Shown here: positions 1-12,149 of the stretch, piece by piece
Layout of the letters: each line of letters starts with the position of its first letter
Numbering within the stretch: the stretch's first letter is position 1
DNA from: a virus
Taxonomy: Duplodnaviria; Heunggongvirae; Uroviricota; Caudoviricetes
Direction: 5' to 3' (one strand)
IMG/VR virus record: IMGVR_UViG_2737471817_000011
Location: 1 to 12,149 of that record
Length of the DNA: 12,149 nucleotides
Position numbers and translations under genes: made by a program
Notes under the pieces: generated by a model
Seen by the model: the letters and a program-made list of their open reading frames with translations, nothing else
Told to the model about the DNA's origin: nothing
Database searches by the model: none

Positions 1-1284
1 TTACTTCTTCGCCTCTGCAACCACTTTACTACCCACGCCGCGGTTATTGTATTCCCACATGCGGTTGTAGTTAGTGTCATTCAGATTGCGCTGTATTTCG
101 TCGTTATCATCTACGCTGCCGGTATTACCCGCAAACGGACGATTAGAGATCACCGCATCGGCCCACGGTTTAGCCGTGTTAAAACCTTCGTTGATGGCGC
201 TATCACGGATCACCACCTGACCGTTGGTATTGGCATCAACATCCAGCGAGCGGCCCAGTTGCGCCACACCATCACCGAAAGCATTGAAACGGCTGTTTAC
301 GGCGAGGAAACCGTAGTAAATGTTGGACAGCGTAGCCGGTGCAAACACATACGCTTCTTGCTGAGTACGTGAGTTCACCACGCGGAATTCGGTGTTATCG
401 AACACCACTGCGCCGCGACCAGAAACGATATCCACATCCCCTTCAATGTAGCTGTTGGTCACCAGCGTACGCGGCTGACGGTTGGTTTCCAGACGGTTCT
501 GCACACCGCTGTTGGTGACAAAGAAGGTGTTCTGACGACCGAGAATGTTAACGTTGTTAATCTGTACCAGGTCACCATCAGTACGCAGTGCCACCGCCGG
601 ATGGTTACCTGCATCTACGCTATCGCCCAGCGTGTTTTCGATGGTCAGATTTTGCAGTTGCAGGCCATTGTTTTGTGACCAGAAGACCGCAGAGCAGAGA
701 ACACCGATACTGTCGCTGCGTTTGCTCTGGCAGCTATCGTACATATACCACGCTGGTTTACCTGGCATATATTTGCCGCGCGGGTTGACGTCGTGACGCC
801 AGTCGGCAGGGCTCATGCCACCATCAAGGGAAAGCCCAATCTTCACATCAATCGGTTTTTCACCTGTACCGTACAGAGTAATTCCACCCGGAGCGGCAGG
901 GACATATACCGTTCCCTGATACTCACCAGGCATCACGGCAATATACTGGCGCTTGTTGGTACGCTTGATAATTGCCGCATCTACCGCCGCCTGAATCGTG
1001 GTATGCGTTACACCTTGAGTGCCCGCCGGGCCGACAACAAAGTCAGGTTGCGCAGGCAGGGTAATCGGGGAAGGATTCCACGCTGCAGCACCTGGTGTCA
1101 GGGATGCAAAATAGTGTTGAGCATCGAAATTCTGCGCTTCTTTTGCCGACAGAATCGGGCGAGAAGAGGTACCAGGCGCGGTTTGATCAGAAGGACGTTG
1201 ATCGGGCGGGGTTGAGCTACAGGCGGTCAGCGTCACGCCAAAAGCCAATGCCAGCGCCAGACGGGAAACTGAAAATGTGTTCAC
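1..1284 (-). CDS. ybhC: Outer-membrane lipoprotein YbhC (pectinesterase-fold family; putative acyl-CoA thioesterase)
   Basis: 427-aa ORF ending at window base 1. N-terminus MNTFSVSRLALALAFGVTLTAC has a signal peptide and lipobox (LTAC). Recognised from memory as the gene flanking attB-lambda on the gal side in E. coli K-12. Confidence 0.88.
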   Translation of the reverse strand: MNTFSVSRLALALAFGVTLTACSSTPPDQRPSDQTAPGTSSRPILSAKEAQNFDAQHYFASLTPGAAAWNPSPITLPAQPDFVVGPAGTQGVTHTTIQAAVDAAIIKRTNKRQYIAVMPGEYQGTVYVPAAPGGITLYGTGEKPIDVKIGLSLDGGMSPADWRHDVNPRGKYMPGKPAWYMYDSCQSKRSDSIGVLCSAVFWSQNNGLQLQNLTIENTLGDSVDAGNHPAVALRTDGDLVQINNVNILGRQNTFFVTNSGVQNRLETNRQPRTLVTNSYIEGDVDIVSGRGAVVFDNTEFRVVNSRTQQEAYVFAPATLSNIYYGFLAVNSRFNAFGDGVAQLGRSLDVDANTNGQVVIRDSAINEGFNTAKPWADAVISNRPFAGNTGSVDDNDEIQRNLNDTNYNRMWEYNNRGVGSKVVAEAKK

Positions 1285-1330
1285 AGGTTGCTCCGGGCTA
1301 TGAAATAGAAAAATGAATCCGTTGAAGCCT

Positions 1331-1345
1331 GCTTTTTTATACTAA
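1331..1345. other. attL: attL core: 15-bp lambda-type overlap sequence GCTTTTTTATACTAA
   Basis: Exact 15-mer read at 1331-1345. Left flank (ccgttgaagcct) is bacterial B-arm-like; right flank (gttggcattataaaaaagcattgcttatcaatttgttgcaacgaacaggtcactatcagtcaaaat) matches the lambda P' arm as I recall it. Confidence 0.9.
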
Positions 1346-1426
1346 GTTGGCATTATAAAAAAGCATTGCTTATCAATTTGTTGCAACGAACAGGTCACTA
1401 TCAGTCAAAATAAAATCATTATTTGA
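1346..1426. promoter_or_regulatory. P' arm of attL with tandem Int arm-type sites (aggtcactat / cagtcaaaat, 1392-1411)
   Basis: Arm-type consensus-like decamers read directly at 1392-1401 and 1402-1411, followed by AT-rich aaaatcattatttg. The 3' end of int overlaps this arm, as in lambda. Confidence 0.7.
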
Positions 1427-2489
1427 TTTCAATTTTGTCCCACTCCCTGCCTCTGTCATCACGATACTGTGATGCCATGGTGTCCGACTTATGCCCGAGA
1501 AGATGTTGAGCAAACTTATCGCTTATCTGCTTCTCATAGAGTCTTGCAGACAAACTGCGCAACTCGTGAAAGGTAGGCGGATCCCCTTCGAAGGAAAGAC
1601 CTGATGCTTTTCGTGCGCGCATAAAATACCTTGATACTGTGCCGGATGAAAGCGGTTCACGACGAGTAGATGCAATTATGGTTTCTCCGCCAAGAATCTC
1701 TTTGCATTTATCAAGTGTTTCCTTCATTGATATCCCGAGAGCATCAACATGCAATGTTGTAGGTATGGCAATTTTTACGCCCGTTTTGCTTTGCTCGACA
1801 TAAAGATATCCATCTACGATATCAGACCACTTCATTTCGCATAAATCACCAACTCGTTGCCCGGTAACAACAGCCAGTTCCATTGCAAGTCTGAGCCAAC
1901 ATGGTGATGATTCTGCTGCTTGATAAATTTTCAGGTATTCGTCAGCTGTAAGTCTTGATCTCCTTACCTCTGATTTTGCTGCGCGAGTGGCAGCGACCGG
2001 GTTTGTTGTTATATGGCCTTCAGCTATAGCCTCTCGGAATGCATCGCTCAGTGTTGATCTGATTAACTTGGCTGATGCCGCCTTGCCCTCGTCAATGTAT
2101 CCATTGAGCATTGCCGCAATTTCTTTTGTGGTGATGTCTTCAAGTGGAGCATCAGGCAGACCCCTCCTTATTGCTTTAATTTTGCTCATGTAATTTATGA
2201 GTGTCTTCTGCTTGATTCCTCTGCTGGCGAGTATTTTTTCGTAGCGATCAAGCCATGAATGTAACGTAACAGAATTATCACTGTTGATTCTTGCTGTCAG
2301 AGGCTTGTGTTTGTGTCCTGAGAATAACTCAATGTTTGCCTGTATTGCTTCAGTAATTGCTATCCTCCTGTCTCTGCCTAATCCGAACTCTTTACCCGTC
2401 CTTGGGTCCCTGTAGCAGTAATATCCATTGTTTCTTAAATAAAGGTTAGGGGGTAAATCCCGGCGCTCATGACTTCGCCTTCTTCCCAT
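1419..2489 (-). CDS. int: Lambda-type tyrosine integrase Int
   Basis: 356-aa ORF starting MGRRRSHERRDLPPNLY and ending EWDKIEIK, near-identical to lambda Int as I recall it. Catalytic region contains HELRSL and GHKSDTMASQY (tyrosine recombinase R/H/Y signature). Sits next to the att core. Confidence 0.96.
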   Translation of the reverse strand: MGRRRSHERRDLPPNLYLRNNGYYCYRDPRTGKEFGLGRDRRIAITEAIQANIELFSGHKHKPLTARINSDNSVTLHSWLDRYEKILASRGIKQKTLINYMSKIKAIRRGLPDAPLEDITTKEIAAMLNGYIDEGKAASAKLIRSTLSDAFREAIAEGHITTNPVAATRAAKSEVRRSRLTADEYLKIYQAAESSPCWLRLAMELAVVTGQRVGDLCEMKWSDIVDGYLYVEQSKTGVKIAIPTTLHVDALGISMKETLDKCKEILGGETIIASTRREPLSSGTVSRYFMRARKASGLSFEGDPPTFHELRSLSARLYEKQISDKFAQHLLGHKSDTMASQYRDDRGREWDKIEIK

Positions 2490-2685
2490 TTCTGATCCTC
2501 TTCAAAAGGCTACCTGTTACTGGTCGATTTAAGTCAACCTTTACCGCTGATTCGTGGAACAGATACTCTCTTCCATCCTTAACCGGAGGAGGGAATATCC
2601 TGCATTCGCGCACCCATCGACGAACTGTTTCAAGGCTTCTTGGGCGTCGCTGGCGAGCGTTCCACTCCTGAAGTGTCAAGTACAT
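2467..2685 (-). CDS. xis: Excisionase Xis (lambda-type)
   Basis: 72-aa ORF MYLTLQEWNARQRRPRSLETVRRWVRECRIFPPPVKDGREYLFHESAVKVDL, matching lambda Xis from memory. Its 3' end overlaps the int start by 23 bp, as in lambda. Confidence 0.94.
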   Translation of the reverse strand: MYLTLQEWNARQRRPRSLETVRRWVRECRIFPPPVKDGREYLFHESAVKVDLNRPVTGSLLKRIRNGKKAKS

Positions 2686-2710
2686 CGCAAAGTCTCCGCA
2701 ATTACACGCA

Positions 2711-2736
2711 AGAAAAAACCGCCATCAGGCGGTTTG
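2711..2736 (-). terminator. Candidate intrinsic terminator between the 55-aa ORF and xis (GC stem ccgcc/ggcgg followed by a U-run on the minus-strand transcript)
   Basis: Stem aaaccgcc (2716-2723) / ggcggttt (2728-2735) with loop atca; minus-strand RNA continues with a U-tract (plus-strand A-run 2713-2718). The stop codon of the 55-aa ORF (2725-2727) sits in the loop. Confidence 0.5.
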
Positions 2737-2892
2737 GTGTTCTTTCAGTTCTTCAACTCGAATATTGGTTACGTCTGCATGCGCTATCTGCGCCCATATC
2801 ATCCAGTGGTCATAGCAGTCGTTGATGTCCTCTGCTTCGATAACTCTGTTGAATGGCTCTCCATTCCATTCACCTGTGACTCGGAAGTGCAT
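2725..2892 (-). CDS. Small hypothetical protein (55 aa), positional equivalent of the 55-aa ORF just upstream of xis in lambda
   Basis: Not in the supplied ORF track (below its length cutoff); read by hand from the minus strand: MHFRVTGEWNGEPFNRVIEAEDINDCYDHWMIWAQIAHADVTNIRVEELKEHQTA. GGAGA Shine-Dalgarno 6 nt upstream of the ATG. Same spacing from xis as lambda's 55-aa ORF, by my memory of lambda coordinates. Confidence 0.5.
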   Translation of the reverse strand: MHFRVTGEWNGEPFNRVIEAEDINDCYDHWMIWAQIAHADVTNIRVEELKEHQTA

Positions 2893-2972
2893 TTATCATC
2901 TCCATAAAACAAAACTCGCCGTAGCGAGTTCAGATAAAAGAAATCCATCAATTGGTTAGGGTATTTGTAATT

Positions 2973-3158
2973 CTACGAATTATGTTGTTTTTTAGCTTCA
3001 GCTTTCCATTCATCAAAGGCAGTGTCTTTGTTCATGGTGCTGATATTGATCTTACGGTCAATATCATATACACGCCACTCACCGTTAGGCCTCTCTTCGC
3101 ATCTAACTAAGTATGAATTGCCATTAATATCTATGCGTCTGTCTATTTGCATGAACAT
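2973..3158 (-). CDS. Hypothetical small protein (61 aa from the first ATG; track ORF uses a TTG two codons upstream at 3164)
   Basis: ORF MFMQIDRRIDINGNSYLVRCEERPNGEWRVYDIDRKINISTMNKDTAFDEWKAEAKKQHNS. I recognise no family. It is flanked by AT-rich gaps on both sides, unlike the overlapping genes upstream. Confidence 0.35.
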   Translation of the reverse strand: MFMQIDRRIDINGNSYLVRCEERPNGEWRVYDIDRKINISTMNKDTAFDEWKAEAKKQHNS

Positions 3159-3275
3159 TTTCAATTTTCGAATCCTCTTTAATATGCATTTTTTGCTATT
3201 TCAGTAGTTTACTATTGATGAGGCGTTATTATACACACTTCATTAATGCAAGCATCTTTATGCTATGCTACTAAT

Positions 3276-3557
3276 TTAGCCATCAATATTCACCTTTATC
3301 GCGTACACCTTTACCGGTTTATCGCCGAAGTGCGGATGTGTGATTGTCTTGATTTCATAGCCGCCATACGGAACGTCAATTCTGCGGCTGGAATCGTCGC
3401 GCTTCGGATATCCCTTTGTGATAATCAGGCTGTCATACTCCCGTAACATAATTCGCTTATTCCAATAGTCATTACACAGGCGATACTCTTCCGTTTTCTC
3501 TCCTCGAATCATGGCATCGAAGTATTCACCTTTGACGGCAAGTTGTAGGTTAGCCAC
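3276..3557 (-). CDS. 93-aa phage accessory protein; N-terminal motif resembles PUA-like ASCH/DUF3850 beta-barrel proteins; positional analogue of lambda ea8.5
   Basis: ORF MANLQLAVKGEYFDAMIRGEKTEEYRLCNDYWNKR... The pattern hydrophobic-x-(E/P)YF-x-A-x-x-x-G-x-KT-x-E-x-R is typical of ASCH/DUF3850 N-termini. Its start overlaps the stop of the upstream Lar-like gene by 8 bp (operon). Confidence 0.5.
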   Translation of the reverse strand: MANLQLAVKGEYFDAMIRGEKTEEYRLCNDYWNKRIMLREYDSLIITKGYPKRDDSSRRIDVPYGGYEIKTITHPHFGDKPVKVYAIKVNIDG

Positions 3558-3852
3558 GGTTAACCTCCTGCGGAGTAGCCTTTACAAGCACTGGTGCAAA
3601 TCCATCTTCATTAAGGTTATGAATATAGACTTCTGTTCTCCTGCGCTCTTCAACGTTTAATATTGTTTCTGGATCATAAACCCATACTTTCATTCGACTA
3701 TTCCATGAAGAAATCGCTTCAGATCTAGTTCGTTTTTCTGGTCCTTGGGCACCACATTTGCATGACACATAGCGCATTTTCCCTCTGATACTGAATGAGT
3801 ATCCGATGTTAAGCACAGTGGAACCACAGAATGGGCAGCGATATAGATTCAT
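3550..3852 (-). CDS. Lar-family zinc-ribbon protein (putative restriction-alleviation / modification-enhancement protein)
   Basis: 100-aa ORF MNLYRCPFCGSTVLNIGYSFSIRGKMRYVSCKCGAQGPEK with a CPFCG...C-x-CG four-cysteine zinc ribbon near the N-terminus, as in Lar (RalR-like) proteins. AGGTGGA Shine-Dalgarno upstream. ATGA start/stop overlap with the upstream 254-aa gene. Confidence 0.6.
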   Translation of the reverse strand: MNLYRCPFCGSTVLNIGYSFSIRGKMRYVSCKCGAQGPEKRTRSEAISSWNSRMKVWVYDPETILNVEERRRTEVYIHNLNEDGFAPVLVKATPQEVNRG

Positions 3853-4610
3853 AAATCATCCACCTTAGGCGCAGCTGAGACAGCAACATTCCAGAACTCA
3901 GAAAACATATTGTATGCACCAGATAGATTGGAAGTGGCATACCCTCCAAGCTCACTTCTAATCTGAACGGCTCTCATCATTTCCGGCGTTAACTCCTTCG
4001 GCACCATAACCCAACCATCCGGAGTTACCGGAGAGTTGCCATTTATATCGAAGTTTGGCTCTGCGTCCTGAACCAGGAGGATGTAACCATTCTTGGCAGT
4101 ATCAAGTTCTAACGCCTCGGTGACGGTGCCGAAATAGCGATTGCCTAAATCAGCATCACAAGTGCTTACATCAATGGAAACTTCCATGCCTTCGATTAAT
4201 TCTGGCAAGTTGTAAGTTTGGCTTACATGTTGGCTACCCTGAAGCATGGCGGCGCGGCAGGCGTTCCAGCCTCTCACCTCTGCAATAGCGGCAACAGCAT
4301 CAACCGCGTACATTTTAAGAGGGTTAGGCATTGGTTTTTCTTCAGGTACTACTGGCACTGGAGGGGCGGCATAAACAGGAATAACGTCCGATTGCTCTTT
4401 ATTGCTTTCATCCGTTAAAGCCCAGAATAATTTTCCAGCCGGATGTTTGAAAATATAAGCAACTGGTTCTGCTTCCAGCGATGCCAGCGCCAACTTGAAC
4501 GCCTGAAGCTCAATGGCACTGTTGGTATCCAGTCCAAACGGTAATTCATCACGATTGGCTTCGTATTCAGCGATAGTTTGCTTCAGCCATTCTTTGGTTA
4601 GTTCAGCCAT
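3849..4610 (-). CDS. Hypothetical 253-aa phage early-left accessory protein (positional analogue of lambda ea22; family not recognised)
   Basis: Track ORF 3849-4661; I place the start at the internal ATG 4608-4610 (MAELTKEWLKQTIAEYEANRDELPFG...), which is preceded by AAGGGG. Acidic, proline-rich linker (PVYAAPPVPVVPEEKPMPNP) between two predicted domains. Translationally coupled to the Lar-like gene. Confidence 0.6.
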   Translation of the reverse strand: MAELTKEWLKQTIAEYEANRDELPFGLDTNSAIELQAFKLALASLEAEPVAYIFKHPAGKLFWALTDESNKEQSDVIPVYAAPPVPVVPEEKPMPNPLKMYAVDAVAAIAEVRGWNACRAAMLQGSQHVSQTYNLPELIEGMEVSIDVSTCDADLGNRYFGTVTEALELDTAKNGYILLVQDAEPNFDINGNSPVTPDGWVMVPKELTPEMMRAVQIRSELGGYATSNLSGAYNMFSEFWNVAVSAAPKVDDL

Positions 4611-4614
4611 ATCC

Positions 4615-4824
4615 CTAATTCCCCTTGGTGCTGACTTTGACGCCAACCTTGCGAATCTCATCGGCGCATCTGTTCACGATACTCCGGTGAAACTCACAAA
4701 AAATTTTCGCCGACTGCGGCCCTAATGGGTGAACATCGTGCGCACGCGGCAGTACAACCTCCCGCGCCTCCATGTCAGCAATCCGCTTGTCTTTGGCTTC
4801 CAGCTCATTCAGCAGCGCCAGCAA
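4615..4824 (-). CDS. Questionable small ORF at the deletion junction (TTG start in track; possible 5'-truncated remnant of an early-left gene)
   Basis: Translation LLNELEAKDKRIADMEAREVVLPRAHDVHPLGPQSAKIFCEFHRSIVNRCADEIRKVGVKVSTKGN. No ATG with a Shine-Dalgarno at its 5' end; an in-frame stop lies only 8 codons upstream. It ends 4 bp before the 254-aa gene start. Confidence 0.25.
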   Translation of the reverse strand: MLALLNELEAKDKRIADMEAREVVLPRAHDVHPLGPQSAKIFCEFHRSIVNRCADEIRKVGVKVSTKGN

Positions 4825-5747
4825 TTCAGCAGATTGATACTGAGATATCTAATCTGCAGAAGCTTGGTAAGGTGGCTGATAACGAGACTATTTCAAAACT
4901 TCAGTCATATCGTGATGAGCTTGTTCGCAATGCTGGTCCTGATGGTCCGGTCAATCTGGATTTGAAGCAATTAAGCGATCTGCGCAGCCAGTTCAGAATG
5001 GACGTGAAGGGTGAGCGACCAGTGTTACCAAACCGTTCCGATGCTGCCATTCAGCGAGTTTACAAGGCGATGACCGACGATATCAATGGTGCCATTGGTC
5101 AGAATCTTGGCAATGATACTCTTCGTAAATATCAGCAGGCCAATGCCGTCTACGCTGACGAAGCGGCGAAACTAAAGAATACCAGGCTGAAGAATGTTCT
5201 CATGAAAGGCGACCTGACTCCGGAAGTTGTCAACAACATGCTATTCAGCAAGAACAAATCGGAAATTAAGACTCTGTATAACTCAGTTGGTCGTGTTGGC
5301 AGGGCGCAAATGCGCAATGGCATCATTGGAAAGGCGATGGAGAAATCAGGTGGTTCCCCTGACCAGTTCCTTCGGCAGCTTAATATCCTGCAAAACCATA
5401 CTGGCATCACATTTAAGGGGCAGGACTCTGCTTATCTGAAAGGATTAAAAAACTACCTGCAATCCACGCAGCAGGCTGCAAAAGCGGCAGTAACAACACC
5501 CACAGGGCAGCAAACTATCCCGTTCATTATTGGGTATGGGACGGCAATGAACCCGGCGACAACTGGCGCAGCAGTAAGCTATGGACTTCTTACGCGCGTC
5601 TATGAGAGCGAGCCATTCAGAAATGCAATGCTCCGAATGGCAAACACCCCGCGCGGATCAACAGCGTTTGAGAAAGCCATGCAGCAGGCACAAAAGGCAA
5701 TTAACGCTATGACGCAGGGGGCTAAGTCTGATGCGTTGTCAGAATAG
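4725..5747 (+). pseudogene. Probable 3' fragment of a P22-like internal virion / DNA-ejection protein gene (gp16-like by position); the first ~35 codons of the track ORF are probably not coding
   Basis: Long + strand ORF ending 90 bp before a convergent mnt-like gene, the position gene 16 occupies relative to mnt in P22. The C-terminal region is Ala/Gln-rich (QQAAKAAVTTPTGQQ...MQQAQKAINAMTQGAK). The N-terminal 4725-4830 is GC-rich, low-complexity and overlaps a minus-strand ORF. Confidence 0.4.
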
Positions 5748-5836
5748 CTTTTCAAACACCAGGAAAGTACAAAAACCAAATATGTAGAATGCAATATTCA
5801 TCATATCTCTTTGCATAAATCCTCCGTAATGGATGG

Positions 5837-6097
5837 TTAGTTGCTGTCTTTTTTATATAGCTCCTTGAGCGTATCAAAGACAATTTTCTTAACCATATCA
5901 GATTGTTGTTCTGCCATACGCTCTGCATCGTCAATGTAAACTGATGCAGAGCTTTGTTTATCCAATGATTCTTCAATCGCTGCAATTATCTCTGAGTTCA
6001 GCGACCTGTTATTCATCTTCGCACGCTGCTTAATTTTCGCGTGGAGTTCATGCGGAAGTCTCAAGTGAAACTGCGCCTCGTCGTATTTGCTGTACAT
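5837..6097 (-). CDS. mnt: Mnt-like ribbon-helix-helix repressor (immI-type)
   Basis: From the internal ATG at 6095-6097 (AAGGA Shine-Dalgarno upstream): MYSKYDEAQFHLRLPHELHAKIKQRAKMNNRSLNSEIIAAIEESL...DAERMAEQQSDMVKKIVFDTLKELYKKDSN. Closely parallels P22 Mnt as I recall it (FNFRMPMEV...GRSMNSELLQIVQDAL...DAERLADEQSELVKKMVFDTLKDLYKK). Confidence 0.8.
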   Translation of the reverse strand: MYSKYDEAQFHLRLPHELHAKIKQRAKMNNRSLNSEIIAAIEESLDKQSSASVYIDDAERMAEQQSDMVKKIVFDTLKELYKKDSN

Positions 6098-6170
6098 CCT
6101 TGATGCCTCACCAGTTGGGTGGAATGGCATCGTAACCTACTGGATAAATACTCAACAGTACCATTTCGGT

Positions 6171-6193
6171 ATGCAATCACATCATGATTGCAT
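6171..6193. promoter_or_regulatory. Perfect 9-bp inverted repeat with 5-bp spacer (ATGCAATCA-catca-TGATTGCAT); candidate operator upstream of mnt
   Basis: Read directly at 6171-6193. Lies in the 131-bp gap between the mnt start (6097) and the HNH gene stop (6229), where an immI-type operator/promoter would be expected. Confidence 0.45.
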
Positions 6194-6228
6194 CATATCA
6201 TTCGTCTGGAGCAATGAAATGTCAGATA

Positions 6229-6729
6229 TCACCTACTCAACAGATGGTCAGCAACCATGTTTGCTGCCTTATAAGCTATAGCAGCTTCATCAATGGTGTT
6301 GAATCTCCCAAGGGTTATGTTTTTACCTGAGACATTTATCTGAGCTTGCCATTGATTTCTGGCTTGACAGAAAGTTACCCCCTTGATCCCAGCATTGCTA
6401 TTTCGAGGTCCGACATTTAATGCATTTACGACTCTGCTGACATCCCTAAGGTTTGAGATTGCGTTATTTCTTCTGTTTCTATCAATGTGGTCAATCTCTT
6501 GTTTGGGCCATTCGCCATATACATACAGCCAGGCAAGTCTATGTGCAAAATATCTTACGCCATCAATATTAATTGCGTTATATCCATAAGAAATTGTGCC
6601 AGCAACTTTCCCAACAGCACCTCTGGCGCTTAATTTCTTTTTCCAAGTGAAAATTCCTGTTTCTTTATTGTAATCGAGAACCTCCATAAGGCGCTCCCGA
6701 GTTACTACCTCGTGACGTCTCTTACTCAT
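6229..6729 (-). CDS. HNH endonuclease with C-terminal AP2-type DNA-binding domain (homing-endonuclease-like)
   Basis: From the ATG at 6727-6729 (GGAG Shine-Dalgarno upstream): [14 protein letters not shown]... HNH_3-type motif [36 protein letters not shown], then AP2-like [43 protein letters not shown]. Confidence 0.8.
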
Positions 6730-6751
6730 TATTTTCTCCGGAATGTTTATT

Positions 6752-8644
6752 ATGCCAGAACAATTATACAACGTTGTTGTTTCACAACCAAGTCAGTTAT
6801 TTACTTTAGCTCGCTCGTTTAAAGCAAATGCCAATGGCAAAATTTATATCGGAAAAATTGACACTGACCCTGTAAATCCTGAAAACCAGATTCAGGTTTA
6901 TGTGGAAAACGAAGACGGCTCTCACGTTCCTGTATCGCAACCAATCATCATTAACGCTGCTGGTTACCCGGTATATAACGGACAGATTTCCAAGTTCGTA
7001 ACCGCGCAAGGCTATTCTATGGCTGTGTACGATGCATACGGCTCTCAGGAGTATTACTTCTCGAGAGTTAAAAATGACACGCGGTCAGTCACATCATTCC
7101 TGAGTAGCAGGGAATTATGGAAGAAGTACTTGAAGGAATTTGGAATCGTTCTAGTTGATGGTAGCTTTGAGGAAGGGGCAACAGTTAGCGCACCAAATCA
7201 GGCTGTATGGTATAAGTTTGATGGAAAGTGCTATGCAAGAGTAACCGGAGATAGCGTTATCGTTGCATCTGGCTCATCGCCAGACTCAGGCTGGACATCT
7301 GACATTGGCTCACGCATTAAAGCGTGGCTCCCTAATACATCACCAAATACAGATGTATCTACGCGTTTGCAGGCATTGCTTACAGTCGGGAAAGGTGAGA
7401 TTAAAATCCCTGACGGGCGCTATACGGTAAACACCGTCCTTATTACTAACTTTAGCGATTCATCATTCCCATCACTGGGGGCTGGCAGTCCACGTTATAA
7501 TTTTAGCGGTTCATCGATTAACAATACTATTTTCACGGTTTCTGATAATTACTTGCTGAATCACACTGGTGGGGTGAGCGGAACTGTAGTTCATGGAACA
7601 AACACTTATATGAGAACCGGTGATTGTCAGATAATTGGAACTGGAGCAACAAGTAGCGGTGGTTTCAAGTTTAGTTTTTGCACATTTATTGAAGTCGAAA
7701 ATATACGTGCAGCATTGCTTGGAATTCCAGTGTATTTTGCAAACTGCATATATAACTATGTGCGAAACATCAGAGTTGATAATTCTCTGTACGGCATATT
7801 TACAGAAAGTTCAGATCCATCATTCCCAACAAATTCAACATTTGTTGATGATTCAACATTTACTTACTGCTCAAGATATGCTGTAGAGGCGACCATTGGT
7901 CTCACCTTTAACATGACCAATTGCAGTATTGAGAAAAATGGTGTACAAGGTGATGTAAATACTGGTGGGATTTATTTAAAGGTTACTGAGCCGTTAAGTG
8001 TTATAAATATCACTGGAACGTATTTTGAAGCAAACAAAGGAAATGCTGACATAACTGTCCTTAACTCTGGCGGCGGCACCATAGTCGTAAATTTAATAGG
8101 TTGCACGTTTAACAGAGGTAACTCAGATGGGGGTTATACATTAACAAACTTCAAATCACTGTCTCATGCAGGGGTTGGTAAGATTATACTAAATCTACAA
8201 GGGTGTCATTTCTTCTCAAATACATCGTGGGGATTTACTCCATCGGCTGATAAACCTTTTATTACACCTGACACATGGCTTACTGTTAATGGTCTGGATA
8301 CATGTACATTCAGTGAAACAACAAGTCTACCAGACACTATTCAATCAAGCTCATCCAGTATTAGCGTCAAGGTTGCTGCGGATGGTACAAAAATCAGCGG
8401 CCCATCCTACATCACAACGTCAAAAACAGGAACTGGAGTTTATTCAGTAACAAGTAATTATCCATTAGGTACATCGCCTGTTGGCAATGATTATTCCGTA
8501 ATGGCTATATCCAACATCGATGGTTTTGTTGTTACAAGCTCGGCAAATCAAAGTGCAACTTCCTTTAATGTAAGAACTAAAAGTTCTTCCGGTTCCGCTG
8601 CAGACACAGCCTTTAGTGTGACAATTACAAGACGAATTGGGTGA
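6752..8644 (+). CDS. Tailspike protein: P22-type N-terminal head-binding domain plus a distinct beta-helix-like receptor-binding domain
   Basis: Residues ~10-105 ([72 protein letters not shown]...AVYDAYGSQ) parallel the P22 gp9 head-binding domain as I recall it. The rest is Ser/Thr/Asn/Gly-rich with repeated N-x-(S/T) and Cys-containing short repeats, typical of right-handed beta-helix depolymerases. Alternative start at 6743. Confidence 0.85.
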
Positions 8645-8649
8645 TTAAG

Positions 8650-8679
8650 GATGGCGCATATGCGCCATCTTTTTATTTA
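8650..8679. terminator. Bidirectional intrinsic terminator between convergent tailspike and gtrC genes
   Basis: Perfect 20-bp palindrome GATGGCGCATATGCGCCATC (8650-8669) followed on the + strand by TTTTTATTTA. The gtrC stop codon (8673-8675) lies in the T-run. Confidence 0.65.
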
Positions 8680-9947
8680 TTGATTACGCAATCATAAAAG
8701 GCTGATACCTGACCTAAATTACCAAAAAACCAATACTCTCTGTTGTTAATATATCTATATGTATATGGCGTTGAGATTCTATTAACTTTAATTCCATTTT
8801 TACACGACCCATTAAACCTTGCAGATTCAATTGTTGATTCTCTTAATGAATCTTGTGCTGAATATGCAACAGCTGCCTTAAGAGCAAGTAATGATGATGG
8901 AACCGACAGTAACACGATGGATAGCAAAATTATTATTGATGCCTTGCTTTGTTGTGATATCACCAAAATAGTGGAGCGAGTTATAACTGCTGTCATTATG
9001 CACCATGAGAACATGAATGCCCTTGCTTCTGTGTATGGTGACATAATCATTGAACCATCAACAAGAACAGCGGCAATAATACAGAGCCATATTTTTACAC
9101 TCGCTTTATTGGTATAAATTAAATATCCAATTGAAATAACGGATATAAACATTAAAAACCATGATGTAGTTACGAAAACAGTGATAACATCAATAATTCT
9201 TGCCGTGATGTAATCAATGCTCATTCCATTGTAATTTAAAGCATGTTGATAAAATTCCTTTCTCCGTACTGTTGATGGAGCTAGAACAATGATAATCCAT
9301 CCTGCCAACACAAAAATCATAGGAATAATGCGCTTTATTGATAGATTATCATTAATAAAACAAAATAATAACATCGTTATAAGTAAAGCAACTGGTACAT
9401 TTTCAAAACTAAGTCCAGCCAAGAGACATGCAAATAAATACACGCAATAATATTTTATTTTTATTTTTTCAATTAAATTGTAATTTATATACACAAGCAA
9501 TACCGATAGCGTTATTACCATCGGTTGCAGGTATCCAGCATTTGCTGTTTTCCAGAAAAAAACCTCAAATCCAGGCCAGAACGAATATATTGCAATAATT
9601 GAAACGCATGTCCCAAACATAGCGTTATTGCTATCATCTGAGAAAATCCTGAAAATAATATAAGATAGGGCCAAAAAAGAAATAATTGATACGACTATAA
9701 AAAATGTTGGCGGCATGCTCAAGTTAAATATTGCAAGTTGCTCACCAAGCCTTGCGTTCCACATTTCAATTTGTCTTGCTGATCTTTCAACTGAATACAT
9801 GATTCTTGTAATCAAGTCGTGATTAATGAATCTTTTGGTTAATGCAAAATCCTCACCAGCCAATGGGAATATTGAGAATGTTATTGCATAAACAGATGTA
9901 AGAAAGCCTGCAACTATGTAGATGCAGCGATTTATGTTATTTACCAC
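8673..9947 (-). CDS. gtrC: GtrC-type serotype-specific O-antigen glucosyltransferase (polytopic membrane protein)
   Basis: 424-aa, strongly hydrophobic ORF with many predicted transmembrane segments, immediately downstream of gtrA-gtrB and overlapping the gtrB stop by 11 bp. GTG start 5 nt after AGGAGG. Very AT-rich (only 11 G/C in 9421-9480). Confidence 0.75.
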
Positions 9948-10863
9948 ATTCCCCTCCTTTCAGAATATAGCGCGGACGATGCTTAACTTCTGTATAAATT
10001 CTGCCAATATATTCACCAAGAACGCCGATTCCAATCAATTGAATGCCACCGAGGAATAGTATTGATACAAGAAGTGACGGATACCCAGGAACGTTGTTGC
10101 CAAACATCAGCTTGTCAATAATCATCCACGAGCCATACATAAATGACAGGCTGGCGACAAAAAGGCCAATGTATGTCCACATTCTCAGTGGTAAGGTAGA
10201 GAAGCTGGTGATTCCTTCGAGTGCCAGATTCCATAACTTCCACCCGTTGAATTTAGAATCACCTGCGACGCGTTCTGCCCTGGCATACTCAACAACATCT
10301 GTGCGTCCGCCAACCCAGCTCAGCACGCCCTTCATAAATAGGTTGCGTTCCGGCATGAGTTTTATGTTCTCCACGACCTCGCGGGACATCAGACGGAAGT
10401 CACCAACGTTTTCTTCAATCTTCGGATGACTAATTTTGTTGTGCAGTTTATAAAACCACTCAGCGGTTTTTCGCTTTAATCTTCCATCAGTAGATCGATC
10501 TGATCGTTTTGCAAGCACCATATCAGCACCTGCCTGCCACTTTTCAATAAGATGAGGAATAACCTCAATCGGGTCTTGCAGGTCAACATCAATTGGAATT
10601 ACAGCATCTCCGGTTGCATGGTCTAACCCTGCAAACAATGCTGGTTCTTTACCAAAGTTTCGTGTAAATGACAGCGGAACAACTAGAGGATCTGAAACGG
10701 ACAGAGCGTTAATGATTGACTCCGTAGCGTCTTTGCTACCATCATTTATAAAAACAATTTCCACTTCATATGGCTTCAACTCTTCGAATTCACGTACCGT
10801 TTTATAAAAAATTGGTATCGCTTCCTCTTCATTGAAGACAGGAACGACCAGAGATATCTTCAT
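9937..10863 (-). CDS. gtrB: GtrB bactoprenol (undecaprenyl-phosphate) glucosyltransferase, GT2 family
   Basis: 308-aa [53 protein letters not shown]... (GT2 N-terminal fold, DxD-type region PIDVDLQDP) with two C-terminal transmembrane helices, the classic GtrB/YfdH architecture. 4-bp ATGA overlap with gtrA. Confidence 0.92.
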
Positions 10864-11222
10864 TTCGCATCCCTAAAGACAATGAACTTTGAATAGACGA
10901 AACCGCACACCAAGCTGATGGCGGAGAAGGTGACAAGAGTGACAATTGGAGGAAGTGCACATCTATCAGCAGCCCATCCAACAGTAGCACTCAGTGTTCC
11001 CATGAACCCGACATATAACATGTAACGCATCGTTGTAGTTGATGCTTTGAATGTGAATTTTGCATTCGCGAAGAAGCTAAAACTCACAGCCACAACAAAA
11101 CCTGCGAAGTTTGCAAGAGCCTGATTTGTATGCGCGGCATAGATACATACACCAAAAACCACCCAGTGTATAAGTGTGTTCAGCACACCAATCGAGGTGT
11201 ACTTTGCAAATAGCTTTAACAT
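10860..11222 (-). CDS. gtrA: GtrA flippase-family small membrane protein
   Basis: 120-aa [62 protein letters not shown]... with four predicted transmembrane helices. Recognised from memory as GtrA (YfdG-like). First gene of the gtr operon, as in P22 and Shigella serotype-converting phages. Confidence 0.92.
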
Positions 11223-11386
11223 TTATTTAATCAATGAGTTCATGAAAGGCATGAAGTCTATCATCCAAGTCTCAATCGATCGATACTTGCTATGGTTGAT
11301 GAGACAAAACTGAGACACACAAAGCTTTGCACTGAATTGCAAGGCTTTGTTCTTCTCTGGAGTGCGACAAGTTTGATGACAAAAAA

Positions 11387-11421
11387 TTAGCGCAAGAGGA
11401 CAAAAAATCACCTTGCGCTAA
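11387..11421. promoter_or_regulatory. sib-like stem-loop (candidate RNase III retroregulation site) on the phage side of the P arm
   Basis: Stem TTAGCGCAAG (11387-11396) / CTTGCGCTAA (11412-11421) around a 15-nt loop. It sits where lambda sib sits relative to attP, on the far side of the P arm from int. Confidence 0.45.
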
Positions 11422-11567
11422 TGCTCTGTTACAGGTCACTAATACTATCTAAGTAGTTGATTCATAGTGACTGCATATGTTGCGTTTTGCAGTATTATAC
11501 AGTCTATTTTTTAAGCCAAATGTATTGTAAGTGATTGCTATTAATGATTTTTGCTGTTTCTGGTTCA
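11422..11567. promoter_or_regulatory. P arm of attR with Int arm-type sites (acaggtcactaat at 11431-11443; catagtgactgcatat at 11460-11475)
   Basis: The distal P arm (ctctgttacaggtcactaatactatctaagtagttgattcatagtgactgcatatgtt) matches lambda from memory. The core-proximal ~60 bp (aagccaaatgtattgtaagtgattgctattaatgatttttgctgtttctggttcagc) appears to differ from lambda. Confidence 0.65.
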
Positions 11568-11582
11568 GCTTTTTTATACTAA
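11568..11582. other. attR: attR core: second copy of the 15-bp core GCTTTTTTATACTAA, followed by bacterial B' arm (cttgagcg)
   Basis: Exact 15-mer at 11568-11582, a direct repeat of 1331-1345. Downstream cttgagcgaaacggg matches the attB right arm as I recall it. Confidence 0.9.
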
Positions 11583-11641
11583 CTTGAGCGAAACGGGAAG
11601 GTAAAAAGACAAAAAGTTGTTTTTAATACCTTTAAGTGATA

Positions 11642-11664
11642 CCAGATGGCATTGCGCCATCTGG
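11642..11664 (-). terminator. Stem-loop immediately downstream of ybhB (possible terminator or mRNA-stabilising hairpin)
   Basis: CCAGATGGC (11642-11650) / GCCATCTGG (11656-11664) with loop ATTGC, 9 bp after the ybhB stop. No clear U-run follows on the minus-strand transcript, so terminator function is uncertain. Confidence 0.3.
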
Positions 11665-11672
11665 CAGAGTGA

Positions 11673-12149
11673 TTAACTAAACATCGCAGTAATCGAGGCG
11701 CTTGCCAGAGAGTGGAAATGAACGTTAAACCCGACCATCGCGCCGCTGGCACCTTCATCGACATCAATACGTTCTATATCCAGCGCGTGAACGGTAAAAA
11801 TGTAGCGATGAGTTTCGCCTTTCGGCGGTGCTGCGCCATCGTACCCGGTTTTACCAAAGTCGGTACGCGTCTGCAAAACGCCGTCTGGCATTGCTACCAG
11901 ACCAGAGCCAAACCCTTGCGGTAATACGCGGGTATCAGCGGGTAAGTTAACAACTACCCAGTGCCACCAGCCGGAGCCGGTTGGCGCATCCGGGTCATAG
12001 CAGGTGACGACAAAACTTTTCGTTCCCGCAGGAACATCATCCCACGCCAGATGCGGTGAAATATTATCGCCATCGTAACCCATGCCGTTAAAGACATGAC
12101 GATGCGGCAACTTATCGCCATCGCGCAGATCATTACTGATGAGTTTCAT
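11673..12149 (-). CDS. ybhB: YbhB, PEBP (phosphatidylethanolamine-binding protein / RKIP) family protein
   Basis: 158-aa ORF MKLISNDLRDGDKLPHRHVFNGMGYDGDNISPHLAWDDVPAGTKSFVVTCYDPDAPTGSGWWHW..., PEBP signature DPDAP...GxxHW. Start codon is the last 3 bases of the window. Known neighbour of attB-lambda on the bio side. Confidence 0.88.
   Translation of the reverse strand: MKLISNDLRDGDKLPHRHVFNGMGYDGDNISPHLAWDDVPAGTKSFVVTCYDPDAPTGSGWWHWVVVNLPADTRVLPQGFGSGLVAMPDGVLQTRTDFGKTGYDGAAPPKGETHRYIFTVHALDIERIDVDEGASGAMVGFNVHFHSLASASITAMFS

Follow-up and report, generated by a model that had tools for sequence, protein, structure and literature searches.

A compact HNH-AP2 cassette at the tailspike start of P22-like phages is probably a spreading homing-endonuclease element

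The stretch of DNA analyzed here (the window: IMG/VR record IMGVR_UViG_2737471817_000011, positions 1 to 12,149, hence 12,149 nucleotides) carries a P22-like prophage remnant in which a leftward gene for an HNH endonuclease with an AP2 DNA-binding domain is found between the repressor gene mnt and the tailspike gene, as a preliminary description of this DNA had already recognized. Comparison with relatives that carry or lack this gene makes it likely that positions 6234 to about 6825 form a compact, recently spreading homing-endonuclease cassette specific for the tailspike 5' end of P22-like (Lederbergvirus) phages, and, as part of the same reading, that the encoded protein is a monomeric nuclease of the I-HmuI HNH(N) type with an AP2 DNA-binding domain fused to it. 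Judged from alignments with HNH-less phages, the insertion is not intergenic but lies after codon 5 of the ancestral tailspike open reading frame (ORF), with the cassette supplying a replacement for the lost 5' end, which the preliminary description had missed. The relevant features are the following, in window coordinates:

6234 to ~6825: mobile cassette as a whole, ~590 bp; absent from phages IME10 and Sf101; near-clonal island
6229-6729, minus strand: HNH_3 + AP2 endonuclease gene, 166 amino acids (aa), TGA stop codon at 6231-6229
6552-6421, minus strand: HNH_3 domain (Pfam), residues 60-103
6424-6492, minus strand: catalytic HNH(N) motif aligned to I-HmuI, from D80 and H81 through N93 to N102
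6390-6262, minus strand: AP2 domain (Pfam), residues 114-156
6208-6233, plus strand: orphaned ancestral tailspike translation start, with Shine-Dalgarno (SD) sequence GGAG at 6208-6211 and ATG at 6219-6221, then TCA GAT ATC ACC (MSDIT)
6219-6281, plus strand: residual 20-codon ORF that continues from the orphan start antisense to the 3' end of the HNH gene; no proposed function
6730-6751: divergent spacer, 22 bp, with back-to-back SD sequences around TCCGGA, CTCC at 6736-6739 (GGAG, for the HNH gene) and GGAA at 6740-6743 (for the tailspike)
6752-6830, plus strand: cassette-borne replacement tailspike 5' end, with the new start MPEQL and recoded codons 6-26
6763-6791, minus strand: candidate sigma-70 promoter of the HNH gene, -35 TTGGTT at 6791-6786, 17-nt spacer, -10 TATAAT at 6768-6763, within tailspike codons 4-14
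6752-8644, plus strand: tailspike gene, 630 aa, head-binding and receptor-binding domains (Pfam Head_binding, E=3.4e-55)

Insertion into the tailspike gene

The working tailspike start of HNH-less phages such as IME10 and Sf101 reads GGAG-N7-ATG TCA GAT ATC ACC GCA AAT GTT GTG GTA... (MSDITANVVV), and the orphaned start in the window is identical to it up to the insertion point. Alignment with HNH-less P22-like phages sets the left boundary at 6233/6234 and extends the inserted block to about 6825: in an alignment of the window with IME10, Sf101, and Kapi1, the match to the HNH-less start ends at ACC (6233), and IME10 and Sf101 lack positions 6234 to ~6766, so that ACC runs directly into GCA AAT in an empty site of the form ...GGAGCAATGAAATGTCAGATATCACC|GCAAATGTTGTGGTAAGCATGCC.... 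The stop codon of the HNH gene is itself supplied by the orphaned tailspike codons. From left to right, the cassette comprises the HNH gene, the back-to-back ribosome-binding sites, the new tailspike start, and ~22-26 recoded tailspike codons. Compared to HNH-less alleles, tailspike codons 6-22 have a DNA identity of only 49-53% (24 of 51 nt differ), yet 13-14 of the 17 residues are the same and 12 codons are synonymously changed, while DNA identity is 91-93% over codons 23-60. Since the cassette brings along a new ribosome site, an ATG, and the first 22-26 codons, the tailspike would stay functional, and the viability of Kapi1—an isolated infectious temperate phage that carries the cassette—shows that the rearranged start works. 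The tailspike ORF opens at 6743/6752, and it is ATG 6752 that lines up with the starts of other tailspikes; this ATG is separated from the HNH start codon (ATG 6729) by the 22 bp noted previously, and CTCCGGAA in this divergent spacer is conserved in most members of a clade of homologues that are likewise linked to tailspike genes (see below).

An exact 10-nt direct repeat, TACTCAACAG, is present at 6149-6158 in the mnt-tailspike spacer and at 6234-6243 as the first 10 nt of the cassette. We rejected it as a target-site duplication, since IME10, Sf101, and EC06 have TACTCAATAG instead and the ant and gene-16 contexts lack the repeat; ~0.3 repeats of this kind are expected by chance per 800 bp, and the match is probably a coincidence.

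The preliminary description had proposed that the HNH gene displaced the arc and ant genes of P22, and this part has to be abandoned. The arc/ant DISPLACEMENT idea is wrong because IME10 and Sf101 share both mnt and the mnt-tailspike spacer with the window yet contain no arc/ant and no HNH gene, and mnt directly adjoins the tailspike without an HNH gene in these two phages and in about 210 E. coli prophages. Conversely, the identical HNH gene is found between ant and the tailspike in Kapi1 (100% identical protein), Combat2C1, and GB089, ant and HNH co-occur in NRG857C too, and GF66.2 has the HNH gene directly after gene 16 without any immI genes. HNH-less loci with mnt alone are thus common, and ant and the HNH gene can stand side by side. 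According to the literature, the interval between gene 16 and gene 9 holds a hypervariable "ant moron". Ten types of it were distinguished among sixteen genomes; it may be absent (Sf6), consist of mnt only (ST64T and ST104), or comprise six genes (P22) (PMC2629481).

The HNH-AP2 protein

The ORF of the HNH gene spans 6229-6771 on the minus strand, and we chose ATG 6729 as its start. The automatic start call of PGAP, seen in the annotations of three other loci (L006-L008), is an internal Met (MEVLDYNK..., 152 aa; region 6685-6729). We prefer the 166-aa start because of its good GGAG (6739-6736, 6 nt before the ATG) and because residues 6-14 (HEV.TRERL) are kept clade-wide, and by this comparison the automatic call looks too short. 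Automatic annotation pipelines overlook or mis-call both the orphan start and the true start of the 166-aa HNH protein.

The HNH_3 domain (PF13392) scores 59.7 bits (E=2.1e-16; cutoff 24.8) and the AP2 domain (PF00847) 27.6 bits (E=3.6e-6), which is under the cutoff of 33.3; many homologues have a precomputed PF00847 match. PHROG 99 ("HNH endonuclease") matches at 7e-63, and no NCBIfam model matched. The catalytic residues on which the preliminary assignment depended are all kept: the HNH(N) motif aligns with VDHKDGNKDNNLSTNLRWVTQKIN of I-HmuI so that D80, H81, N93, and N102 correspond to I-HmuI D74, H75, N87, and N96. They are identical throughout the tailspike-linked clade, and among 84 homologues D80 never varies and H81, N89, N93, and N102 show conservation of 90% or more. 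Following the work on the I-HmuI structure 1U3E, we take these residues to be an Asp-His general-base pair, a structural Asn, and a metal-ligand Asn. An AlphaFold model made from the 84 homologues (predicted local distance difference test, pLDDT, 89.4) resembles I-HmuI (1u3e_M) in Foldseek with probability 1.0 over 96 columns at a root-mean-square deviation (rmsd) of 3.5, covering the beta-beta-alpha-metal fold and the N-terminal sheet. The modelled AP2 region (strands 118-121, 126-133, and 136-143 and helix 146-165) matches plant AP2 domains (TEM1 and AtERF1) with probability 1.0 and rmsd 1.2-1.4 A at no more than 39% sequence identity.

Several features indicate that the gene is free-standing: it has its own GGAG and ATG on the strand opposite to the tailspike, its stop codon lies within the flanking DNA, and an Rfam scan of the window gave no matches, hence no intron match. 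Compared to its clade relatives, the protein is under strong purifying selection (pN ~0.13, pS ~0.8, the latter saturated), and the single comparison for which a dN/dS ratio is usable, synonymous sites being saturated elsewhere, gives 0.07 (window versus Salmonella locus L043).

Occupied and empty sites

We surveyed 5426 complete E. coli genomes for both flanks of the cassette. The left flank is present in 239 of them, ~224 of which lose the match at window positions 6233-6236, overlapping an annotated tailspike coding sequence. DNA of the tailspike head-binding region occurs in 952 genomes (1017 places). The HNH gene of the window (HNH-A) is found in 15 of these 952 genomes and a second nuclease gene (HNH-B, see below) in another 15, together ~3% of loci, so that neither is a fixed component of this phage group. 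Cassette-type tailspike 5' ends that have lost the HNH gene were not seen among the 5426 genomes. Empty sites in the ant context (eps34, CUS-3, and N7) match to 1 nt from the junction. A sporadic HNH-AP2 gene with intact catalytic residues and precise empty sites bears out the free-standing homing-endonuclease insertion that the preliminary description had suspected.

For HNH-A, we assembled 26 loci from E. coli genomes, Kapi1, and IMG/VR. From the junction to 6825 (island 6227-6825), their diversity is very low (pi no more than 0.031, mostly <0.02; no more than 0.018 in the replacement 5' end up to 6825), while pi is 0.3-0.45 to the left of 6199 and exceeds 0.5 past 7093, where receptor-binding domains are diverse. 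These 26 near-clonal copies sit in at least 5 types of left flank and are joined to ~19 clusters of receptor-binding domains, with tailspike lengths of 446-981 aa. The same junction ACC|TAC occurs with two alleles of the orphan start: ATGTCAGATATCACC in the main mnt context (with the exception of L015, L018, and L031, whose mnt is 65% identical and whose orphan is the other allele) and ATGACAGACATTACC in ant, gene-16, and other contexts. Each orphan allele corresponds to the working start of HNH-less phages of the same context, IME10 and Sf101 for the former and CUS-3 for the latter (where the last base alone differs, ACA). The two alleles differ at three positions, the nearest of which is 3 nt from the junction. 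In the GenBank record of CUS-3, the 101-bp spacer between ant and the tailspike (L048 457-557) carries the annotation "bsq1; boundary sequence". This spacer runs as far as the tailspike ATG (L048 557), and the insertion point of the HNH cassettes in other phages follows 15 nt downstream.

HNH-A is intact in 25 of its 26 copies, and 20 copies are identical. The copy of EC06 (locus L005) carries a nonsense mutation, Y60*, equivalent to window position 6550, and is listed as a pseudogene; in 30COLEC the match starts only at cassette position 44. Both are cases of an element in decay. Mostly intact copies together with the nonsense copy of EC06 fit the invade-then-decay cycle of homing endonuclease genes (HEGs). 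More distant members of the clade, 67-84% identical to the HNH protein of the window, are found in Citrobacter, Mixta, and Serratia and also in Salmonella, in the latter case upstream of a genuine P22-type tailspike. At every clade locus that we examined (Salmonella, Mixta, and Serratia genomes and IMG/VR contigs), the gene is divergent from and 22-33 bp apart from a Head_binding tailspike gene, and each examined IMG/VR relative (L028-L037) has its own orphan SD, ATG, and 4-6 codons on the left. The C-terminal tail of the HNH protein after ...ADHLL differs in each clade relative because the ORF runs into the local orphan.

The second lineage, HNH-B, is a distinct HNH-AP2 gene (169 aa; 42% identical over 92 aa to HNH-A) found at the identical junction, ACC|TACC, in both mnt and ant contexts. 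Its 15 E. coli genomes include EC1515 (L004 3580-4175) and the loci L049-L051. HNH-B has a spacer of 86 bp and its own new tailspike start, MTDSINANVVV; in contrast to HNH-A, its right-hand tailspike codons are not recoded but differ from the empty allele by the insertion and one base only.

These data bear directly on the possibility that the gene is a passive moron, i.e., an inert or otherwise employed passenger that inserted once and has since been shuffled without homing by ordinary homologous recombination at boundary sequences and the head-binding domain. The interval between gene 16 and the tailspike is indeed a documented hypervariable moron region (PMC2629481), the ant-tailspike spacer of CUS-3 is annotated as a boundary sequence, and the conserved head-binding domain (90-95% identity in ~800 genomes) offers homology on the right. 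On the left, however, homology is limited to the 27-nt orphan, and since the two orphan alleles diverge as close as 3 nt to the junction, with each matching the local HNH-less allele, homologous recombination from a single ancestral insertion would need crossovers within 3 nt. The presence of two distantly related HNH genes at the same junction and the strong purifying selection on the catalytic residues and the whole protein speak against this explanation as well, and we consider it unlikely.

A candidate promoter within the tailspike codons

The promoter of the HNH gene appears to lie within the imported tailspike codons, on their opposite strand. In the window, the -10 hexamer TATAAT begins 39 nt upstream of the HNH ATG, and a relaxed scan across relatives finds TATAAT, TATGAT, or TATTAT 37-41 nt upstream of it in every clade member; the most divergent of these, Serratia L046, has a -10-like hexamer at -51/-46, and HNH-B has TATAAT at -34. 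The hexamer is preserved in two different tailspike frames, ATT ATA (Ile-Ile) or cAA TTA TAc (Gln-Leu-Tyr) depending on the lineage, which suggests that selection acts on the DNA motif and not on the protein, and HNH-less starts (ATG TCA GAT ATC ACC GCA) do not contain it. A promoter written in the first tailspike codons would explain why the element carries its own tailspike 5' end. The preliminary description had reasoned that each of the two divergent promoters must lie inside the other gene's coding sequence. This seems to apply to the HNH promoter but not to the tailspike, which needs no promoter inside the HNH gene because the P22 tailspike is transcribed by polymerase from P-late reading through the gene 16-gene 9 region (PMC2629481).

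Homing and alternative functions

If the cassette is a homing element, its spread would begin when an HNH-carrying phage and an HNH-less relative meet in one cell, by co-infection or by superinfection of a lysogen. By analogy to I-HmuI-type enzymes, the protein would bind a long asymmetric site via its N-terminal sheet, HNH core, and AP2 domain and then introduce a nick or a cut into the naive tailspike allele, at or a few nt from ...ATC ACC|GCA AAT.... Recipient sequence is kept to 3 nt from the junction for both cassettes and in both contexts, and this is most simply explained by a break (at least of the top strand) at or near ACC|GCA. Repair from the HNH-carrying genome would copy in the cassette and a short right-hand tract, with recipient sequence retained on the left up to the break and conversion ending on the right within the conserved head-binding codons, here at about codon 23-33. 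The old ribosome site, ATG, and five codons would be left behind as the orphan that supplies the HNH stop.

Other functions of the nuclease have to be weighed against this. It could be a domesticated weapon or regulator of the prophage that cuts the tailspike gene of superinfecting HNH-less relatives, or that tunes tailspike or mnt expression through its AP2 domain, with homing secondary or extinct. The gene sits among the lysogenic conversion and exclusion genes of P22-like genomes (sieA, mnt, and gtr), its candidate sigma-70 promoter is independent of the late operon, and it has stayed intact although the prophage in the window is a remnant. The sole match in PADLOC, a generic "homing endonuclease" model, can be read in favor of such a role, but PADLOC gave no match to a protein of a dedicated defence system. 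Moreover, the HNH gene is carried by just ~3% of tailspike loci, and its near-clonal island is a signature of spread and not of long-term benefit to the host; a defensive or regulatory role would also be compatible with homing rather than exclusive of it. As an explanation in its own right, we find it quite improbable. Finally, a terminase-associated HNH packaging cofactor of the HK97 gp74 type, with which the protein has the HNH superfamily in common, can practically be dismissed on gene position, as the gene always lies beside the tailspike and never adjoins terminase or portal in any locus, and also because the protein is of the HNH_3/I-HmuI type with AP2 and P22-like phages package by a headful (pac) mechanism.

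Several points nevertheless weigh against a homing cassette of the kind that we favor. Nuclease activity, the cleavage site, a nick as opposed to a double-strand break, and super-Mendelian inheritance are all inferred. The region is a known recombination hot spot, given the ant moron (PMC2629481) and the "boundary sequence" of CUS-3, so that some of the diversity of contexts could arise without nuclease action. The right flank of HNH-B is almost unchanged, and the recoding in HNH-A may therefore be sequence of the donor lineage and not target immunity. A strict sigma-70 consensus scan did not report the candidate HNH promoter, whose -35 is weak (3 of 6 matches). Furthermore, the prophage in the window is defective, and nothing homes from it without a helper.

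A more far-reaching version of the homing reading, which we put forward tentatively and hold to be rather doubtful as a whole, would have two dedicated HNH-AP2 lineages specialized on the first P22-type tailspike codons across Enterobacterales. Each might be a bidirectional module that overwrites the 5' end of its target with a version doubling as the nuclease promoter; the breaks would drive the shuffling of receptor-binding (host-range) modules, and nuclease expressed from prophages would act against superinfecting relatives that lack the cassette.

Relationship to known systems

Among the closest known parallels are I-HmuI, I-HmuII, I-BasI, and I-TwoI (HNH_3; 1U3E), which have in common with the window protein the DH...N...N motif with Asn replacing the last His and, according to the model, the N-terminal sheet and beta-beta-alpha-metal core. 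Like these enzymes, which nick one strand, the window protein is small, monomeric, and modular, and it is expected to recognize a long asymmetric site. Enzymes of the I-HmuI group, however, are encoded inside group I introns and have a helix-turn-helix end, while the window gene is free-standing, antisense to its target, and has an AP2 end; sequence similarity to I-HmuI is weak (E=0.07).

The combination of HNH and AP2 is a recognized homing-endonuclease architecture (PMC10448857, citing Magnani 2004). Free-standing HNH-AP2 enzymes of phages, cyanobacteria, and protists, such as the phage-borne "IPA-HNH" of ICP1 (PMC10448857), have the same two-domain build and sporadic distribution, and the ICP1 nuclease genes lie at boundaries of genetic exchange just as the window gene does. 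The latter differs in being a canonical HNH_3 and not of the divergent ICP1 type, in residing in temperate P22-like phages and prophages, and in its site at tailspike codon 5/6 with a replacement 5' end. HEGs of the T4 family (mobE, SegF/SegG "intronless homing", and Aeh1 mobE splitting nrdA) likewise lie beside or inside a conserved gene, co-convert flanking donor sequence, have HEG+ and HEG- alleles that differ near the site, and can be tolerated within an ORF since the gene parts stay expressible. In the window, by contrast, only five codons are split off and discarded, and a new ribosome site, start, and N-terminal codons come with the cassette, whose own promoter apparently lies inside them.

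A further known counterpart is Kapi1_066 ("HNH endonuclease") of Escherichia phage vB_EcoP_Kapi1 (MT813197), the identical protein noted above, which has the same junction and the same new tailspike start; Kapi1 differs in its left neighbor, ant and not mnt, and in the receptor domain of its tailspike. The kind of element is therefore already known, given the recognized HNH-AP2 architecture and the annotation of this identical gene. The Kapi1 papers do not mention the HNH gene, and in the literature that we searched we found no description of an HNH gene at a P22-like tailspike start, nor of an insertion inside an ORF with an orphaned start, a promoter-bearing replacement 5' end, or two nuclease lineages at one junction.

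Most work on homing endonucleases concerns virulent T4-like phages, and those of temperate phages have received far less attention. The loci described here form an unusually complete natural record, in which empty and filled sites can be compared exactly, two nuclease lineages compete for one nucleotide position, and a near-clonal island of ~600 bp is joined with ~19 different receptor-binding domains, and the system is simple and testable because Kapi1 can be cultured. They raise the questions whether a selfish nuclease stimulates the exchange of host-range modules, how an element tolerates insertion in an essential ORF via a replacement start, and whether prophage-borne homing endonucleases act in phage-phage competition.

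The prophage remnant and neighboring genes

The window is part of an enterobacterial chromosome, with ybhC at 1-1284 and ybhB at 11673-12149 and a P22-like prophage remnant of ~10 kb between them. Besides the tailspike and the HNH cassette, the remnant contains a few early-left genes and the following features:

1419-2489: integrase gene
2467-2685: excisionase gene
4725-5747: fragment of gene 16 (DNA transfer protein), PHROG 770 positions 332-666 of 668, C-terminal half only
5837-6130, minus strand: mnt repressor gene (Pfam Arc and Repressor_Mnt), left neighbor of the cassette and outside of it
8673-11222, leftward: gtrA/gtrB/DUF6056 O-antigen modification module

The gene-16 fragment abuts the early-left genes (region 4661-4725 / 4725-5747), and all head, terminase, lysis, replication, and morphogenesis genes are gone. 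The prophage between ybhC and ybhB is thus a defective deletion remnant. The same remnant was not found in the collection of complete E. coli genomes searched, where the best coverage is 38%. Since this prophage has no replication and morphogenesis genes, its HNH cassette is stranded. The HNH gene itself is intact and could still act on incoming phages.

Between mnt and the orphaned tailspike start, a perfect 9-bp inverted repeat, ATGCAATCA/TGATTGCAT, at 6171-6193 is likely the Mnt operator. It is followed at 6197-6225 by a leftward promoter-like site, CTGACA-17-AATGAT, whose -35 overlaps the orphaned tailspike ATG and which is probably Pmnt. The HNH cassette lies directly upstream of this site, so that transcripts of the HNH gene would run into mnt. 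On the other side of the tailspike, the gtr module consists of gtrA (120 aa), gtrB (308 aa), and a 424-aa DUF6056 membrane protein (gtrC-like serotype-specific transferase), and it is apparently intact.

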